From Escherichia phage BYEP01, in the sequence record OR757453.1: DNA of 64,000 nucleotides. The stretch is one strand, 5' to 3'. Shown piece by piece: positions 1,495 through 51,468 of the stretch. The stretch's first letter is position 1. Each line of letters begins with the position of its first letter. A model generated the notes under the pieces. The model was not told the origin of the DNA. It saw nothing but the letters and a program-made list of their open reading frames with translations, and searched no databases. The position numbers were made by a program, and so were the translations under genes.

Positions 1495-1774
1495 ATATAA
1501 ATCCGACTTTGATGTTAATATTCACCGTGGTACATTTTGGGGAAATTACGTCGGTAAAGATGCTGGCAGCCGGGAGGCTGCCATTGAATTATTCAAAAAA
1601 GATTTTATACGTCGAATTAAATCCGGAGAAATAACTAAAGCACATTTAGAGCCTTTACGTGGAATGAGGCTAGGATGCACATGTAAACCAAAGCCGTGTC
1701 ATGGTGATATAATAGCTCATATAGTTAACCGATTGTTTAAAGACGATTTTCAAGTTGAGGACTTATGCAATTAA
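1448..1774 (+). CDS. DUF4326-like protein (RVVNK...FWGN...GCTCKPxPCHGD motif), nrdA.1 position
   Basis: 108-aa ORF with conserved Cys/His motif [15 protein letters not shown]; overlaps nrdA start. Confidence 0.55.
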
Positions 1775-3198
1775 TTAATGTTATCAAAAGTAGTGGTGTT
1801 TCTCAGAGCTTTGACCCACAAAAAATTATTAAAGTTTTATCTTGGGCAGCTGAAGGAACATCTGTAGATCCTTATGAATTATATGAAAATATTAAATCAT
1901 ATCTCCGTGATGGAATGACCACTGATGACATTCAGACTATTGTCATTAAGGCTGCTGCGAATTCTATTTCGGTTGAAGAGCCTGATTATCAATATGTAGC
2001 TGCACGCTGTTTAATGTTTGCTCTTCGTAAGCATGTTTACGGGCAATATGAACCACGTTCATTTATTGACCATATTTCTTACTGCGTAAATGAAGGTAAA
2101 TATGACCCTGAATTGTTGTCAAAATATTCAGCAGAAGAAATTACATTTTTAGAATCAAAAATTAAGCACGAGCGGGATATGGAATTTACTTATTCCGGGG
2201 CGATGCAATTAAAAGAAAAATATCTAGTTAAAGATAAAACCACTGGTCAAATTTATGAAACTCCACAGTTTGCATTTATGGCTATTGGAATGGCACTGCA
2301 TCAAGATGAACCTGTTGATAGATTAAAACATGTCATTCGTTTTTATGAAGCAGTATCTACTCGACAGATTTCATTGCCAACTCCTATTATGGCTGGTTGT
2401 CGTACTCCAACTCGACAGTTTAGTTCATGCGTTGTTATTGAAGCAGGTGATTCGCTGAAGTCTATCAATAAGGCTTCTGCTTCAATTGTTGAGTATATTT
2501 CTAAACGAGCTGGAATTGGCATTAACGTTGGTATGATTCGTGCCGAAGGTTCTAAGATTAGCACAGGTGAAGTGCGTCATACTGGTGTTATTCCTTTTTG
2601 GAAACATTTTCAGACTGCAGTTAAATCATGCTCACAGGGTGGAATTCGTGGCGGCGCTGCTACTGCTTATTATCCTATTTGGCATTTGGAAGTTGAAAAT
2701 CTTCTCGTTTTGAAAAATAACAAAGGCGTAGAAGAAAACCGTATTCGTCATATGGATTATGGCGTCCAGCTGAATGATTTGATGATGGAACGTTTTGGAA
2801 AGAACGACTACATTACTTTGTTCAGTCCACATGAAATGGGTGGTGAGCTTTATTATTCTTATTTTAAAGACCAAGACCGTTTCCGTGAATTATATGAAGC
2901 CGCAGAAAAAGACCCTAATATTCGTAAAAAGCGTATTAAAGCCCGTGAACTGTTTGAATTGCTCATGACTGAACGATCAGGAACAGCAAGGATTTATGTA
3001 CAGTTCATAGATAATACGAATAACTATACTCCGTTTATTCGTGAAAAGGCACCTATTCGTCAGAGCAACTTGTGTTGTGAAATTGCTATTCCAACAAATG
3101 ATGTGAATAGTCAACAAACCCGTTTAATCAAAATTAAGAAGTCGGATGTAGCTAAGTTTTATGAAGCTAATCCTGGCGGTATAATTCAAAGCAAATAA
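1765..3198 (+). CDS. nrdA: ribonucleotide reductase large subunit, N-terminal fragment (477 aa), ends shortly after the SNLCCEIAIPTNDVN active-site segment
   Basis: Class Ia NrdA homology (ATP cone to NxCxE active-site loop); ORF terminates ~26 codons after the last recognisable NrdA residues. Confidence 0.85.
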   Translation: MQLINVIKSSGVSQSFDPQKIIKVLSWAAEGTSVDPYELYENIKSYLRDGMTTDDIQTIVIKAAANSISVEEPDYQYVAARCLMFALRKHVYGQYEPRSFIDHISYCVNEGKYDPELLSKYSAEEITFLESKIKHERDMEFTYSGAMQLKEKYLVKDKTTGQIYETPQFAFMAIGMALHQDEPVDRLKHVIRFYEAVSTRQISLPTPIMAGCRTPTRQFSSCVVIEAGDSLKSINKASASIVEYISKRAGIGINVGMIRAEGSKISTGEVRHTGVIPFWKHFQTAVKSCSQGGIRGGAATAYYPIWHLEVENLLVLKNNKGVEENRIRHMDYGVQLNDLMMERFGKNDYITLFSPHEMGGELYYSYFKDQDRFRELYEAAEKDPNIRKKRIKARELFELLMTERSGTARIYVQFIDNTNNYTPFIREKAPIRQSNLCCEIAIPTNDVNSQQTRLIKIKKSDVAKFYEANPGGIIQSK

Positions 3199-3246: not shown

Positions 3247-3957
3247 ATGGATTATTCTAAAATTTACAATAACCTTATTTCTAAAGCTAAGAATAGAAAA
3301 TTAGATTGCTATACCGAATCACACCATATTATACCTCTGTGTATTGGCGGTTCTGATACAAAAGAAAACCTGGTAGATTTGACACCAGAAGAGCATTACA
3401 TAGCTCATCAATTATTAGTAAAGATATATCCAGATAATCATAAATTGATATTTGCCGCTAATATGATGTGTGTTTATTCTGAAGATAATATTGAACGAAA
3501 GAACACCAATAAACGTCATGGGTGGCTTAGAAGAAAATTGGCTATTTCTGTATCTGAAAATAATAAAGGCAAACCGGCTTGGAACAAAGGTATTCCTATG
3601 TCTCCAGAAGTTAAATCTCGACTTCAAACATCTTGGGTGTTTACATTTCCGGATGGTCATGAGGAAATTCATCGAGGTCTTAACGAATTTTGTAAAGAGC
3701 ATAATTTAAATGCATCTGCGATGTCAGCCGTTTGTAAAGGTAAACGGGCGCATCACAAAGGATTTAAGTGTAAGAAATTGGATAAGATTTCAGAGCTTGA
3801 TAATTTAGTTTTCGTCAGTAAACCTCATCCAAAGGGATTAAAACCCCATAACTTAATTGCTGTAAAAATAAACGGTATAGAATATCAATCAATACATCGA
3901 GCATCTAAAGCTTTAGGAATTACTAGAAAAAAGGTAGAAGAATTAAATGAATATTGA
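3247..3957 (+). CDS. HNH homing endonuclease, free-standing, inserted inside nrdA
   Basis: 236-aa ORF with N-terminal YSKIYNNLI...TESHHIIPLCIGGSDTKENLVDLTPEEHYIAHQLL HNH motif; paralogous to ORFs at 30598-31290 and 49730-50542. Confidence 0.8.
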   Translation: MDYSKIYNNLISKAKNRKLDCYTESHHIIPLCIGGSDTKENLVDLTPEEHYIAHQLLVKIYPDNHKLIFAANMMCVYSEDNIERKNTNKRHGWLRRKLAISVSENNKGKPAWNKGIPMSPEVKSRLQTSWVFTFPDGHEEIHRGLNEFCKEHNLNASAMSAVCKGKRAHHKGFKCKKLDKISELDNLVFVSKPHPKGLKPHNLIAVKINGIEYQSIHRASKALGITRKKVEELNEY

Positions 3958-4936
3958 TTATGAATTTGTAGATGAATTTTACGAAGATGATGAGTATACT
4001 ACAATAGAAGTTATTGAAAACAGGGGAGAAGTGGGGCTTTGTACCCTTAGCGCATTTGTGTTGGATAACTTCGATTGGCAAGACCAAGACAAAATTAATG
4101 AATTAGCAGAAGTTCAAGTTCGTGCTCTTGATAATCTTTTGGACTACCAAGGATATCCAGTTCCTGAAGCAGAAAAAGCTAAAAAGCGTCGAAACCTTGG
4201 CGTAGGTGTTACTAACTATGCAGCTTGGCTGGCAAGTAACTTTGCTTCTTATGAAGATGCTAACGATTTAACACATGAACTATTTGAGAGATTGCAGTAT
4301 GGACTCATTAAAGCATCCATTAAGCTCGCCAAAGAAAAAGGACCTTGCGAATATTATTCAGACACTCGTTGGTCTCGAGGCGAATTACCTATCGACTGGT
4401 ACAATAAAAAGATTGACCAAATCGCAGCTCCAAAATACGTTTGTGATTGGGACGAACTTCGATCTGAACTCAAACAGCATGGAATTCGAAATTCTACTTT
4501 ATCCGCGTTGATGCCGTGTGAATCATCCAGTCAGGTATCTAACAGTACAAACGGTATCGAGCCTCCACGTGGACCAGTCTCTGTTAAAGAATCAAAAGAG
4601 GGTTCCTTTAATCAAGTCGTGCCCAATATTGAGCATAACATAGACCTCTATGATTATACGTGGAAATTAGCTAAGAAAGGTAATAAACCTTATCTTACGC
4701 AGGTAGCTATTATGCTGAAATGGGTATGTCAATCAGCTTCAGCGAATACATATTATGACCCGCAGATTTTTCCAAAAGGAAAGGTTCCAATGTCTGTAAT
4801 GATTGATGACATGCTATACGGATGGTATTATGGCATTAAAAACTTCTATTATCATAATACCCGTGATGGTTCTGGTACTGATGATTATGAAATAGAAACT
4901 CCCAAAGCTGAAGATTGTTCATCCTGTAAATTATGA
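3947..4936 (+). CDS. nrdA: ribonucleotide reductase large subunit, C-terminal fragment (GEVGLCTLSAF... to C-terminal Cys pair)
   Basis: Class Ia NrdA C-terminal homology including the CTLSAF cysteine loop and C-terminal CSSCKL tail; own ATG overlapping the HNH gene stop. Confidence 0.8.
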   Translation: MNIDYEFVDEFYEDDEYTTIEVIENRGEVGLCTLSAFVLDNFDWQDQDKINELAEVQVRALDNLLDYQGYPVPEAEKAKKRRNLGVGVTNYAAWLASNFASYEDANDLTHELFERLQYGLIKASIKLAKEKGPCEYYSDTRWSRGELPIDWYNKKIDQIAAPKYVCDWDELRSELKQHGIRNSTLSALMPCESSSQVSNSTNGIEPPRGPVSVKESKEGSFNQVVPNIEHNIDLYDYTWKLAKKGNKPYLTQVAIMLKWVCQSASANTYYDPQIFPKGKVPMSVMIDDMLYGWYYGIKNFYYHNTRDGSGTDDYEIETPKAEDCSSCKL

Positions 4937-4987: not shown

Positions 4988-5663
4988 ATGAGCACAGTTT
5001 TTAATACAAATCCAGTTGATGTTTTAACAGAACCTATGTTCTTCGGTTCAGGTCTTGGAATTGCACGTTATGATATTCAACGACATAAGGTATTTGAAGA
5101 ACTTATTGAACGTTCGCTCTCGTTTTTCTGGCGGCCTGAAGAAGTAAACTTAATGATGGATGCTGCACAATTTAACAAGCTCCCAGAACACCAAAAATCT
5201 ATATTTATCAATAACTTAAAATACCAGTCATTGTTAGACTCCATCCAGGGGCGTGCACCATCTGCGGTACTTATGCCATTGCTTTCAGATCCAAGCCTTG
5301 ATACATGGGTAGCAACATGGACTTTTAGCGAAACTATTCACAGTCGTTCATATACCCATATCATGCGTAACTTGTTCAATGACCCTGCTAAGGTATTTGA
5401 TGAGATTGTACTAGATGAAGCTATCATGAAACGTGCTGAATCTATCGGTCGCTATTATGATGATGTTCTGACTAAAACCCGTGAATGGGAAAATGCTAAA
5501 GAATTTACAGAACTAGCTAAAGAATCTCCTGATGCTGTTTTTCGTTTAAATCGAGCTATTAAACAAGAAGCCGAAGCTAAACGTGCTTTAATGAAATCTC
5601 TTTACCTCTGTTTGCACGTTATTAATGCCTTAGAAGCTATTCGTTTTTATGTATCTTTTGCGT
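4988..5663 (+). CDS. nrdB: ribonucleotide reductase small subunit, exon 1
   Basis: NrdB homology (…RFYVSFAC junction); frame broken by taa at 5663-5665. Confidence 0.85.
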
Positions 5664-5967
5664 AAAATGCGCCTTTAAACGGTAACGTTTATCGAAAACT
5701 CCTTTAATTGCTGGAAAGTCCTTTATAGGAAAACTAGCAGCCAAGGTTTTGCTTGCACCTTTAATTAGCATAATATAAATGATTATACTTTTAAGAGGAT
5801 GCACAATTGCAAAGCAAGGTTCAACGACTAGTCTTCGGACGTAGGGTCAAGCGACTCGAAATGGGGAGAATCCCTCTGGGATTGTGATATAGTCTGGTCT
5901 GCATAGTAATATGTAGCAGTTCATAAGAGAACGGGTTGAGAATTAGCGAGCTCAATCGAACATAACG
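5664..5967 (+). ncRNA. group I self-splicing intron in nrdB, ~304 nt, no internal ORF
   Basis: Separates NrdB ...SFAC from TFNFHKNMEIMEGNAKI...; contains gggtcaagcgactcgaaatgg segment nearly identical to the td intron core; boundaries inferred from restoring the NrdB frame. Confidence 0.7.
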
Positions 5968-30341: not shown

Positions 30342-30572
30342 TTAAAAGCTTTCTTCTACTTCATCGTCTGAATCTTCTAATTCAGCTCTTTTTCCTGCCA
30401 AAGCATCTCTGACAGAGATGTCATCAGTATCTTTTAATTCAGTTTCTTTAACTCTTTTCTTGTAATAAGCTTCAAGTTCTTCTAGACCTTCTAATGTTTG
30501 ACAAGAGGCAATTTTACCCATAAATTCATCAATAGAAGCTTCATAAAGAAATTGTTTAAATTCTAGTAACAT
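30342..30572 (-). CDS. UvsW.1-like small acidic protein
   Basis: 76 aa from ATG at 30572 with GGAG SD; acidic C-terminus. Confidence 0.6.
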   Translation of the reverse strand: MLLEFKQFLYEASIDEFMGKIASCQTLEGLEELEAYYKKRVKETELKDTDDISVRDALAGKRAELEDSDDEVEESF

Positions 30573-30583
30573 CTTTTTCTCCA

Positions 30584-30599
30584 AAGGGCCGGAGCCCTT
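30584..30599 (-). terminator. terminator-like hairpin after the HNH gene
   Basis: aagggccggagccctt stem-loop between HNH stop and uvsW.1 start. Confidence 0.4.
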
Positions 30600-31290
30600 A
30601 TAAATTAACTGTTTTTCTAAGTATTCTTAGTTTGTACATTGATAATCCAGTAGCTTTAGAAGCATCTTTCATGCATTTATACTTAACACCATTTACTTCT
30701 ATAGGTTTAGCAGCTGGGTTATTAGCTCCTGAATTATCTGGCATGTTATCTTTAATTTTCTGAATAGATTTAGCGGAATGTTTCCTTCCATACATGCCAT
30801 TATTTTTACCTGATTGATTGATAGAATGCAATCTTTTAGCTTCTTCAGTCCATTTTGTTGGGTTCATTCTTTTAGTTTTACTAATTTTACTTCCCCACGT
30901 AATTGGACGATTTTTCATGAGTTTTGACATATATTGTTTATGTTCTTCCGTATGGTGTTTTCCGTAAAATGGATTACCTTCACCTGATTGAAGTTTTGCC
31001 ATTTTACGACGTTCCCAGGCGTAAGATTTATTAACGTGTCTTTCATGAGTATTTGAATTCATTCCCATACATATAACGGCTTTAATTATACCGTAATGGT
31101 TTGGATGAATTTTAGCTAAAAGTTTATGAGCTATAAAATGCTCTTCAGCTGTTAGTTCTACCAAATTACACTTATCATCTGTACCACCCATACATCTAGG
31201 AATTATATGATGAGTTTCAGTGTATCCATTAAGGCGAGCCCGATTCTGGGCTCTATTAATTAAATTATCATATATTAATTTATAATTCAA
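30598..31290 (-). CDS. HNH homing endonuclease, free-standing, between uvsW and uvsW.1
   Basis: 230 aa; YKLIYDNLI…TETHHIIPRCMGGTDDKCNLVELTAEEHFIAHKLL; paralog of 3247-3957 and 49730-50542. Confidence 0.8.
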   Translation of the reverse strand: MNYKLIYDNLINRAQNRARLNGYTETHHIIPRCMGGTDDKCNLVELTAEEHFIAHKLLAKIHPNHYGIIKAVICMGMNSNTHERHVNKSYAWERRKMAKLQSGEGNPFYGKHHTEEHKQYMSKLMKNRPITWGSKISKTKRMNPTKWTEEAKRLHSINQSGKNNGMYGRKHSAKSIQKIKDNMPDNSGANNPAAKPIEVNGVKYKCMKDASKATGLSMYKLRILRKTVNL

Positions 31291-32798
31291 AGTTTAACCT
31301 CTTTCATCACATAATTAAACTTCTCATCAGCATAACGCTGAATACGATCAAGTCCATGTTTTAAAAGATAGTTTAAATGCGAGTATTTTTTAGAAGATGT
31401 TTTTGATTTAGAAACTACGCCCGCGTCATCTATGAGATCCCAGACTGTTGCGATTGTTTTAGAACCATGCTTACGTAATACGCGACCTATTGTTTGCAAT
31501 ACAATAATTTTAGATTTAACACCGTGTGCTAAAACAACATGATGCAGATTTTTAACTGAAATACCAGTAGAAAATACACCATAACTCGCTACTATAATTA
31601 TTCCTTTACCATTTTCAGCTAAGGTTTTCATTACGTTGCGGGTTTCGGTATCAACTTCCCCTGATACGTAATAAACTTTATCGTATTCATTTTTAATTAA
31701 ATCGAAAATAGCTTTACCGTGCGATACGTGTTTAAACATGACAAAAGCGTTTTCATCTTTTTGTGCAAGTTTAATAGCTAATTTAGCGATCCATTTATTT
31801 CTTTTACTGAGCCCAGTAATAATTTTTATTTCTTCTTGGTAAGTTTTTCCCTTTAATTTAGTAGTGAACTCATCAGGATAGCGAAGAAAAATACTATTAA
31901 TTTTTAACTCAGTTACTTGTCCATCTTCCATTAATTTAGAAGTCGTTACTGGCTTAAATATTTCACCAAACATTCCAACATACTGCATGATATTGGCTTT
32001 GCCATCACGTAATGAACCGGACAAACCGAATTTGAACATGCAGTTATTTAAACCTGATATGATAGATGAAATACTTTTTCCTGTAGCAAGATGGCATTCA
32101 TCATTCATCATCATTCCAAACTGTGAGAACCATTCTTTCGGTTGTTTAACTACAGTTTGCCATGTACCAACGACGACTGGTGCATCATTTTTATATTTAT
32201 CATCTTTTGATGCTCCGCCGCCAATTTTCTTTATCATTGCATGACTGAATAAACGATAGTCAACAAAGTCATCAGCCATCTGAGTTGTCAGAGCAGTTGT
32301 TGGAACAATGATAAGAATTTTACCTTCATAATTTTCCAAATAATATCGCGCAAGCAAAGCTTGGATTAACGATTTACCAGCGGATGTTGGAAGATTAAGA
32401 ATTCTACGACGATTAACTAATCCTTCGAACACTGCATCTTTTTGATACCAGTGCGGTTCAATTCTTTTATTTCCTGAATAGATTTCTAATTTAGAAAGCC
32501 ATTCATCAAAATCTTTTCTTGATAATTCTTCTTTTTCGTTAATCTGCGGGTCAATCCAGGCTTTATAGCCAAAATTATCACAGAACTTTTTAATTTGCCC
32601 GACTAAGCCGAATGGAAGAAGACGATTATAATCTAAAAGACGGATTCGTCCATCCCAGTGGCCATATCTGTATTTCGGATTAAAACGATACCCATCAGCT
32701 TCAAAGCTAAAGAAATCACGGAGTTCATGAAATGTACTTTCTTCACAATCAATTCTCACGTGACTAAAATCATAAAAATGTACTTTAATGTCAGTCAT
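31287..32798 (-). CDS. uvsW: UvsW RNA-DNA / DNA helicase (SF2)
   Basis: 503 aa; Walker A PTSAGKS and DECH box (MMMNDECH); matches T4 UvsW from memory. Confidence 0.9.
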   Translation of the reverse strand: MTDIKVHFYDFSHVRIDCEESTFHELRDFFSFEADGYRFNPKYRYGHWDGRIRLLDYNRLLPFGLVGQIKKFCDNFGYKAWIDPQINEKEELSRKDFDEWLSKLEIYSGNKRIEPHWYQKDAVFEGLVNRRRILNLPTSAGKSLIQALLARYYLENYEGKILIIVPTTALTTQMADDFVDYRLFSHAMIKKIGGGASKDDKYKNDAPVVVGTWQTVVKQPKEWFSQFGMMMNDECHLATGKSISSIISGLNNCMFKFGLSGSLRDGKANIMQYVGMFGEIFKPVTTSKLMEDGQVTELKINSIFLRYPDEFTTKLKGKTYQEEIKIITGLSKRNKWIAKLAIKLAQKDENAFVMFKHVSHGKAIFDLIKNEYDKVYYVSGEVDTETRNVMKTLAENGKGIIIVASYGVFSTGISVKNLHHVVLAHGVKSKIIVLQTIGRVLRKHGSKTIATVWDLIDDAGVVSKSKTSSKKYSHLNYLLKHGLDRIQRYADEKFNYVMKEVKL

Positions 32799-32848
32799 GT
32801 CTAAATACCATGTAATAAATATATCTATATTTATACTGAGGAAATATT

Positions 32849-48957: not shown

Positions 48958-51468
<2,511 letters not shown>

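Follow-up and report, generated by a model that had tools for sequence, protein, structure and literature searches.

A predicted Mob-class HNH homing endonuclease gene inserted near the 3´ end of uvsW travels with a re-coded uvsW tract

Escherichia phage BYEP01 (sequence record OR757453.1) carries an open reading frame (ORF) for a predicted HNH endonuclease at the 3´ end of uvsW, the gene of the UvsW helicase. The ORF lies on the minus strand of the 64,000-nt stretch analysed here, which is referred to as the window. It belongs to a discrete 689-bp cassette that is present or precisely absent among otherwise near-identical phages, and it is invariably accompanied by re-coded sequence at the adjoining 3´ end of uvsW. 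Judged from sequence comparison, the gene very probably encodes a Mob-class homing endonuclease, and the cassette probably spreads by homing with co-conversion. The window is a Tequatrovirus (T4/T6-type) segment, with Yersinia phage ZN18 as its top match (98.1%). T-even phages are a familiar source of free-standing homing endonucleases, only a few of which have mapped targets, and the Mob proteins are little studied. The ORF is an uncharacterised but typical member of this known class of elements, which would not surprise a T-even specialist, and the literature searches used found no paper on this gene.

Results

The cassette is inserted within uvsW

Insert-less phages define both ends of the cassette (Table 1). 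At the empty sites of a15, KIT06, RB51, GRNsp7 and T4, uvsW reads ...AAT TAC GTA ATG AAA ACA GTT AAT TTA TAA, and UvsW ends in ...NYVMKTVNL-stop; the TAA is followed by a hairpin (GGGCTTCGGCCC) and then by uvsW.1. In the window, the 689 bp interrupt this reading frame after codon 499, four codons ahead of the original stop, and the few A's of the AAA codon (Lys499) leave the edges of the insert ambiguous. The left end of the cassette (GAGGTTAAACTTTGA) reads GAG GTT AAA CTT TGA, which gives UvsW the tail EVKL-stop, and the TTG start codon of the HNH ORF overlaps the TGA (TTGA). At the right junction, the HNH frame continues through ...LRILR-KTVNL-stop, in which the stop codon is the former uvsW stop, so that the displaced original tail (AAAACAGTTAATTTATAA) forms the end of the HNH ORF. 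The downstream hairpin is host sequence, because insert-less phages have it at the same position.

The original prediction, made from the letters of the window, had described a 230-residue minus-strand ORF with an HNH module at exactly 30598-31290, and both the ORF and its module are confirmed. It had also set the ORF cleanly between the uvsW stop and the uvsW.1 start, regarded the intergenic junction as its niche and assigned the hairpin GGGCTCCGGCCC to the ORF itself. These three points have to be given up: the TTG overlaps the uvsW stop (cTTTGA), the insertion lies inside uvsW, and insert-less phages hold the same hairpin at the same place. The loop of this host hairpin is polymorphic at 30592 (UCCG in the window and KIT06, UUCG in most others), independently of the insert.

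An origin of the uvsW/uvsW.1 split in the insertion was considered and rejected, since the split is also present in T4 and at every empty site examined; it was found in all five T4-like genomes compared previously (PMC1524935). The T4 reference NC_000866 still annotates uvsW as a 587-aa fusion with uvsW.1. This record differs by one base from all relatives at the uvsW stop, which matches a reported sequencing error (PMC1524935). The T6 record MH550421 lists two ORFs (365 aa and 114 aa) for uvsW alongside uvsW.1, an arrangement that is not seen in the window and that may reflect a frameshift or a sequencing error.

The cassette is a presence/absence polymorphism in Tequatrovirus

Alleles were taken from INPHARED records, and an exact 33-mer search of IMG/VR gave three loci. 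The HNH gene is present at a protein identity of at least 95% in 48 phage records, and the same 48 accessions contain the full 3.1-kb configuration and the adjacent 150-nt tract at 95% or more. Approximately one tenth of the ~500 Tequatrovirus-level records (those matching the region at 90% or more) have the insert; the remainder, T4 included, are precisely empty. The sampled carriers span at least five species of the International Committee on Taxonomy of Viruses. The endonuclease gene segE and the HNH element assort independently, and all four combinations were observed: T6 has both, the window only the HNH gene, T4 only segE and a15 neither.

These distributions bear out much of what had been proposed from the window. 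A free-standing Mob-type HNH homing endonuclease gene is supported by the presence/absence polymorphism at a single site, and the insert-less junction that had been suggested as a check exists in relatives as a precise empty site. Homologs at the same site in all relatives, without variability, had been named as the pattern of an ancestral resident; the gene is instead variable. The T4 arrangement had been described correctly, with segE between inh and uvsW and nothing inserted at the uvsW 3´ end, and segE is indeed absent from the window, where the inh-uvsW gap is ~50 nt. The description of the element as recently mobile holds in part. The cassette is 96–99% conserved within Tequatrovirus, in keeping with recent movement; against this, it represents an old, site-faithful lineage with 55–70% orthologs in other genera.

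A re-coded uvsW tract is strictly linked to the insert

Seven carriers and six non-carriers were compared over 3.1 kb for fixed differences. All 28 fixed differences between the two groups are located at 31308-31416, and 113 further polymorphisms segregate in both carriers and non-carriers, the nearest at 31437 and 30592. Across 31300-31499, the window shows 23/98 and 16–19/100 mismatches to the insert-less phages a15 and T4. Elsewhere, 0–7 (mostly 1–3) mismatches per 100 nt are observed, excluding the segE-linked 5´ end of uvsW, and no divergence spike to a15 or T4 is present on the uvsW.1 side. T6, which is a carrier, matches the window sequence across 31300-31499.

The 5´ end of uvsW provides an internal control. 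The segE-containing phages T4 and T6 show a similar spike at 32600-32800 relative to the segE-less window, in which the first ~200 nt of uvsW are 10–25% diverged from T4 and T6, compared with mostly 1–3% (maximum 7%) in the rest of the region. SegE is a proven endonuclease with its target in uvsW (PMC2988022, Table 1), and the divergence at 32600-32848 corresponds in position to the expected SegE target and co-conversion tract.

The tract beside the HNH insert consists of two parts. In the upstream part, carriers and non-carriers differ in the encoded UvsW sequence (AGVVSKSKTSSKKYSH versus CGVKPKSANTKKKYVH). Four insert-less records (LH2, OES_C-1, OES_C-2 and OES_C-3) match the tract at 91%. 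The sequences of LH2 and OES_C-1 contain the carrier-type, amino-acid-changing upstream half AGVVSKSKTSSKKYSH and are of non-carrier type from codon 475 on; identical BLAST statistics suggest that OES_C-2 and OES_C-3 carry the upstream half as well. LH2 and OES_C-1 are either recombinants or the background onto which the cassette arrived. These mosaics narrow the strictly linked part to 31302-31374 plus the tail. The eight fixed differences in the strictly linked part (31308, 31311, 31320, 31329, 31332, 31335, 31353 and 31374) are all synonymous. A search for a foreign donor of the Tequatrovirus tract gave no match above ~85% outside the 48 carriers and the four mosaic genomes.

The same site is filled in other genera

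Endonuclease genes occupy the same uvsW junction in further T4-like genera; ~1,240 records match the uvsW stretch concerned. In 13 records of Jiaodavirus type, Roth16 among them, a 69% ortholog separates uvsW from uvsW.1, and the site is empty in the Jiaodavirus phages Roth76 and KpV477. Over the last 100 nt of uvsW, 24 positions differ between Roth16 and Roth76, and the last 40 residues of UvsW show only two amino-acid changes. In Dhakavirus PSD2002, which has a 59% ortholog, uvsW ends in KEVQI-stop, and the TTGA overlap that contains the TTG start is the same as in the window. The HNH ORF of PSD2002 ends in ...NLMKQVDL-stop, the local Dhakavirus UvsW tail as found in insert-less MX01, and the last 250 nt of its uvsW show 10–17 mismatches per 50 nt, compared with 0–2 elsewhere. 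Morganella phage Rgz1 carries a 55% ortholog at the same junction.

Karamvirus EnC07 contains a different Mob gene at this site, with a MobD-like C-terminus and a nearly identical left junction (GAGATTAAACTTTGAATTAT). The last 250 nt of EnC07 uvsW differ from those of insert-less PG7 by 8–15 mismatches per 50 nt, and by 0–2 elsewhere. The possibility that E-V/I-K-L is the native UvsW tail of Karamvirus was rejected, as PG7 ends in MKQIDI-stop. EnC07 and Rgz1, the latter with a C-terminus of NUMOD3 and helix-turn-helix type, both adjoin the same unusual UvsW tail ...FDYTIREIKL-stop, a pattern suggesting that one endonuclease gene was exchanged for another and that the flank was retained.

A diverged uvsW 3´ tract of 100–250 nt was observed in each of the four cases that were compared with an insert-less congener, and the carrier tracts of different genera do not cluster together at the DNA level. 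The sequence GTAATGAAA is invariant across eight empty alleles from six genera. The Val497 codon GTA is changed in each of the six filled alleles, to GTG in Tequatrovirus (two alleles), GTT in Jiaodavirus, GTC in Dhakavirus and ACT in the Morganella phage and Karamvirus.

The ORF combines a Mob-type HNH domain with a putative I-TevI-like DNA-binding region

By its architecture, the predicted protein is an HNH endonuclease of the Mob class, free-standing and with a putative DNA-binding module of I-TevI type. It matches PHROG 655 'homing endonuclease' (4e-61). In a nine-member Mob alignment, residues E25, H27, H28, N42, H51 and H55 are invariant. The profile of the Mob family matches HNH domains of solved structure, with the invariant residues aligned to their motifs: McrA is matched at E 8.7e-6, and the other matches are a group II intron maturase and Cas8f-HNH. 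The Pfam HNH match of the ORF itself is sub-threshold (16.7 versus 21.4 bits). The AlphaFold model has a predicted local distance difference test (pLDDT) score of 88, with values above 94 for residues 1-70, and the predicted HNH fold comprises strands 25-28 and 43-46 followed by helix 48-61. The NUMOD3 region is recognised by Pfam (1.3e-13; 51 bits against a cut-off of 20.4), and the match to I-TevI_DNA-bd lies below its cut-off (14.7 versus 27 bits). Residues 157-216 match the I-TevI DNA-binding domain 1I3J in a phmmer search of the PDB (E 0.006), and Foldseek aligns the C-terminus with the same structure (probability 1.0, E 0.037, target TM-score 0.46, 27% identity over 73 columns).

Comparison with the T4 Mob proteins, which had been suggested as a check, confirms homology of the N-terminal domain, which in the Mob class begins with MNYxxIY, and shows that the ORF is not an ortholog of any T4 mob gene. 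BLASTP matches to MobE (52% over 106 aa), MobD (59% over 75 aa), MobB (44%) and MobC (43%), with E values of 1e-19 to 6e-32, are confined to the N-terminal domain, and BLASTP found no counterpart of the C-terminal DNA-binding region in any T4 Mob protein. Orthology to T4 mobD or mobE is rejected, since the similarity ends after 75-106 residues and the T4 loci differ. GenBank labels for the gene include homing endonuclease, mobD, mobE / mobile endonuclease E, GIY-YIG and hypothetical protein; 'mobD' and 'mobE' are best-hit names. An intron-encoded endonuclease was also rejected: the Rfam scan found no group I intron at the ORF or near any of the three HNH genes of the window, and its introns are restricted to 623-847 and 5647-5916. 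The ORF directly adjoins the host ORFs.

The HNH gene is under purifying selection. The ratio of nonsynonymous to synonymous substitution rates (dN/dS) among carriers is 0.06–0.18, and six of the seven carriers examined have a full-length ORF. In the exception, BF15, a 4-bp deletion in the ATCAATCAATCA repeat frameshifts the DNA-binding half; this copy is either decaying or the product of a sequencing error.

Expression is predicted to depend on uvsW

The only late-promoter consensus upstream of the HNH gene in its transcription unit is the T4-type match TATAAATA that precedes uvsW. No match to a promoter of its own was found for the HNH gene, and a sigma-70 promoter scan performed no better than on shuffled sequence. 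The GC-rich hairpin in the HNH coding region coincides in position with the internal terminator of T4 mobE; the Roth16 and EnC07 genes also contain a hairpin there, with other sequences. T4 mobE has its internal terminator in the 5´ coding region, and several T4 mob and seg genes overlap upstream genes (PMC2988022). The predicted folding of the segment from -30 to +90 is better than that of shuffled sequences (z = -4.4), owing to this hairpin and a 13-bp long-range helix. Transcription of the HNH gene most likely starts at the late uvsW promoter, and its translation is most likely low and coupled to uvsW termination through the weak TTG in the TTGA overlap. The internal hairpin, like the mobE attenuator, may further dampen expression.

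Table 1. Coordinates and properties of the features at the uvsW 3´ end of the window
Feature	Position	Strand	Description
Predicted HNH homing endonuclease ORF	30598..31290	(-)	230 aa, TTG start
Insert, 689 bp	30613..31301	(-)	Defined against empty sites in a15, KIT06, T4 and others
Cassette left end GAGGTTAAACTTTGA	31287..31301	(-)	Substitute UvsW tail E-V-K-L-stop, GAGG ribosome-binding site, TTG start
Displaced original uvsW tail AAAACAGTTAATTTATAA	30598..30615	(-)	(K)TVNL-stop, read in frame as HNH ORF end
Strictly insert-linked uvsW stretch	31302..31374	(-)	Codons 475-499, synonymously re-coded; candidate recognition/self-immunity region
Upstream part of diverged tract	31375..31416	(-)	UvsW AGVVSKSKTSSKKYSH vs CGVKPKSANTKKKYVH; in all 48 carriers, also in some insert-less phages
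uvsW helicase gene	31287..32798	(-)	503 aa, intact; host gene with occupied 3´ end
uvsW.1	30342..30572	(-)	76 aa from ATG at 30572; downstream host gene, without insert-linked divergence
Host hairpin GGGC-UCCG-GCCC	30586..30597	(-)	Between uvsW tail and uvsW.1; also in insert-less phages
Late-promoter consensus TATAAATA	32828..32835	(-)	T4 type; ~30 nt upstream of uvsW ATG
GC-rich hairpin in HNH coding region	31236..31253	(-)	Codons 13-19
Predicted 13-bp long-range RNA helix, 5´ arm	31304..31316	(-)	uvsW codons N-Y-V-M-K
Predicted RNA helix, 3´ arm	31201-31213	(-)	HNH codons T-H-H-I-I; encloses ribosome-binding site and TTG
HNH nuclease domain	Residues ~1-75 of ORF		
Two NUMOD3 motifs	Residues ~94-122 and ~157-185 of ORF		
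Putative I-TevI-like helix-turn-helix	Residues ~193-227 of ORF		C-terminal

Discussion

Proposed homing of the cassette

The mechanism proposed for the cassette draws on T4 homing biology (PMC2988022). In a mixed infection, the enzyme would recognise the insert-less uvsW 3´ end near ...TAC GTA ATG AAA/ACA GTT... and nick or cut it, and T4-type recombination would repair the break from the carrier, with the cassette and 85-250 bp of the carrier uvsW end being copied by co-conversion. The recognition site probably overlaps the junction and/or the proximal tract, because only these differ fixedly in carriers, which must avoid self-cutting. Carriers would be immune through the splitting of the site by the insertion and through changes at nearby synonymous positions, in particular the Val497 codon. 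The predicted cleavage neighbourhood on the insert-less allele is ...TACGTAATGAAA/ACAGTT....

The cost to the host gene would be low, as a four-residue substitute tail is supplied to UvsW, and the host hairpin and the uvsW.1 start are left untouched. At the right junction, the 3´ end of the HNH gene (...TTA ATG AAA in PSD2002) resembles GTA ATG AAA of uvsW; more speculatively, the first entry into each genus may have been a microhomology-assisted join.

Several points weigh against the proposed mechanism. The upstream half occurs in the insert-less LH2 and OES_C-1 and is therefore not needed for immunity. The carrier codon states GAG and TAT are also found in empty alleles of other genera, and the diverged tract may have been left passively by a foreign donor instead of determining immunity. 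The alleles compared between carriers and non-carriers are few and not phylogenetically independent. On the expression side, the 13-bp long-range helix is not conserved in Roth16.

A more far-reaching proposal may be made tentatively, and we consider it somewhat more likely to need revision than to stand as a whole. The mobile unit would be a composite of an immune re-coded uvsW end, a substitute tail with a translation start, and a nuclease ORF that ends in the displaced tail. The independent changes of Val497 from GTA to GTG, GTT and GTC in three genera would then pinpoint the nucleotide that the enzyme must read, and the shared ...DYTIREIKL-stop flank would reflect Mob genes that replace one another and inherit the immunity tract.

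Alternative explanations

The most serious competitor, which we nevertheless regard as unlikely, accepts an active homing endonuclease whose site spans the insertion point, in the manner of intron-encoded enzymes, and views the re-coded tract as hitch-hiked DNA of a foreign donor, irrelevant to recognition, that arrived in a single transfer between lineages and is still to be removed by recombination. The length of the tract varies (~85–125 nt in Tequatrovirus, 150 in Jiaodavirus and 250 in Dhakavirus/Karamvirus), as expected of variable co-conversion; the separation of its upstream half from the insert in LH2 and OES_C-1 and the presence of some carrier codon states in empty alleles elsewhere point the same way. 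Mere hitch-hiking, however, sits poorly with the linkage of the proximal 73 nt to the insert in 48/48 Tequatrovirus records, when polymorphisms 21 nt beyond the tract segregate freely. In addition, three genera each have a different new base at the third position of Val497, a pattern more like repeated selection than common descent.

It is improbable that the gene is a defunct or decaying endonuclease gene, formerly mobile, that persists because it is harmless. Many endonuclease genes of T4 are defective, mobA and I-TevIII among them; the BF15 copy is frameshifted, and the TTG start codon is weak. Such decay is at odds with the low dN/dS, the intact state of all catalytic residues and the full length of nearly all sampled copies, and if pressure from self-cleavage had ceased, it would be difficult to account for the absolute linkage of the proximal tract.

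Co-option of the nuclease for a phage function, either the exclusion of competitor uvsW markers or late recombination-initiating nicks, with homing as a secondary activity, has little to recommend it as the explanation. Late co-expression of the nuclease and a recombination helicase is predicted, and uvsW of the T6 type is bracketed by two endonuclease genes, segE and the HNH gene, which resembles the 'HEG islands' (HEG, homing endonuclease gene) around essential genes (PMC10448857). Most relatives, however, lack the HNH gene, no sequence feature distinguishes co-option from plain selfish homing, and in T4 marker exclusion arises as a by-product of homing (PMC2988022).

A gene ancestral to the uvsW-uvsW.1 locus and deleted from it many times would account for orthologs at the same place in several genera, but it can hardly be the explanation, given that the empty sites are identical and precise in six genera with the canonical tail (MK-T/Q-V/I-N/D/E-L/I) intact, that carriers retain this tail as a displaced copy downstream of the insert, that repeated deletions would not regenerate the same tail, that the foreign-looking tract flanks the insert on one side only, and that carriers are a minority in Tequatrovirus (48/~500) and few among many insert-less phages in Jiaodavirus and Karamvirus.

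Significance of the element

Homing with co-conversion of the uvsW end, the reading favoured here, can draw on a natural experiment with many carrier and non-carrier genomes. The site is filled in five lineages, and four of these can be compared with an insert-less congener. The sharply bounded tract of ~73 nt with synonymous changes only, together with one base that differs in every carrier, yields a specific prediction of the recognition site and of self-protection. The element shows how an insertion inside an important gene, that of the UvsW helicase, can be tolerated, and it explains the mosaic 3´ end of uvsW in comparative genomics. Borrowed or replaced helicase tails, fidelity to one site across genera and a defined candidate immunity tract are informative additions. 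For annotation, the analysis corrects the labels 'mobD', 'mobE', 'GIY-YIG' and 'hypothetical protein'.

Other Mob-type genes and introns in the window

Two further HNH ORFs in the window, at 3247-3957(+) and 49730-50542(-), had been called close paralogs of the ORF. Both exist, with similar N-termini and different C-terminal modules, and the word 'closely' is too strong. Over the N-terminal 64 residues, their identity to the ORF is 62% and 58%, respectively; at the DNA level, the identity is 57–65% over the first ~210 nt, and the longest common exact word is 10–15 nt. The suggestion that the three genes provide substrates for intragenomic recombination is unsupported, as no common exact word exceeds 15 nt. 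One C-terminal module is I-HmuI NUMOD-like and the other of Zn-ribbon type; the paralog in nrdA (3247-3957) matches the Pfam I-HmuI NUMOD-like family.

The nrdA gene of the window is split: one piece spans 1765-3198 (477 aa) and the other 3947-4936 (329 aa), with the Mob-type HNH ORF at 3247-3957(+) between them. The break falls between the ...NLCCEIAIP... and ...LCTLSAF... segments, without an Rfam intron there. By analogy with mobE/nrdA of Aeromonas phage Aeh1, the split nrdA looks like a 'genes-in-pieces' ribonucleotide reductase. The third Mob-type HNH ORF, 49730-50542(-), encodes 270 aa and overlaps genes 13 and 14 at their ends; it has a C-terminal part rich in Cys and His, which shows 34% identity over 76 aa with the T4 I-TevIII remnant. 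Two group I introns, at 623-847 and 5647-5916 (+), exceed the Rfam gathering threshold and, from their positions, are presumably those of td and nrdB.

Comparison with known systems

The element is of the kind described for MobE, SegE, SegF and SegG. I-HmuI of Bacillus phage SPO1 (1U3E) consists of an N-terminal HNH nickase, extended NUMOD-type helices and a C-terminal helix-turn-helix arranged along DNA, an overall plan like that of the ORF. The DNA-binding domain of I-TevI, from the T4 td intron, resembles the NUMOD3 helix and putative helix-turn-helix of the ORF, whereas I-TevI is an intron-encoded GIY-YIG enzyme and the ORF a free-standing HNH gene. T4 MobD (nrdC.11/mobD.1) has the highest local identity, 59% over the first 75 aa and none beyond the nuclease domain, and its locus differs. 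The Yersinia phage PST record labels the gene 'mobD'; a MobD-type C-terminus occurs instead in the Mob gene of EnC07 at the same uvsW site.

T4 MobE is, like the ORF, free-standing and promoterless, with a start that overlaps the upstream stop, suggesting translational coupling, and a GC hairpin at the same codons (PMC2988022). MobE lies between nrdA and nrdB, and the ORF at the uvsW 3´ end; MobE has 141 aa, no NUMOD3/helix-turn-helix module and an ATG start, compared with an unrelated C-terminus and a TTG start in the ORF. Unlike in MobE, the insert lies inside a host ORF and re-creates the host tail. In Aeh1, mobE is a Mob-type gene inserted within the nrdA coding sequence, 'genes in pieces' (PMC2988022), and it splits the host protein into two functional polypeptides, whereas four C-terminal residues are displaced and replaced here. 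Nuclease genes sit at the boundaries of genetic exchange (PMC10448857). T4 SegE shares the host gene uvsW with the ORF and also leaves a sharp divergence tract in the adjoining uvsW sequence; SegE is a GIY-YIG enzyme at the 5´ end of the gene, and the ORF belongs to the HNH type at the 3´ end.

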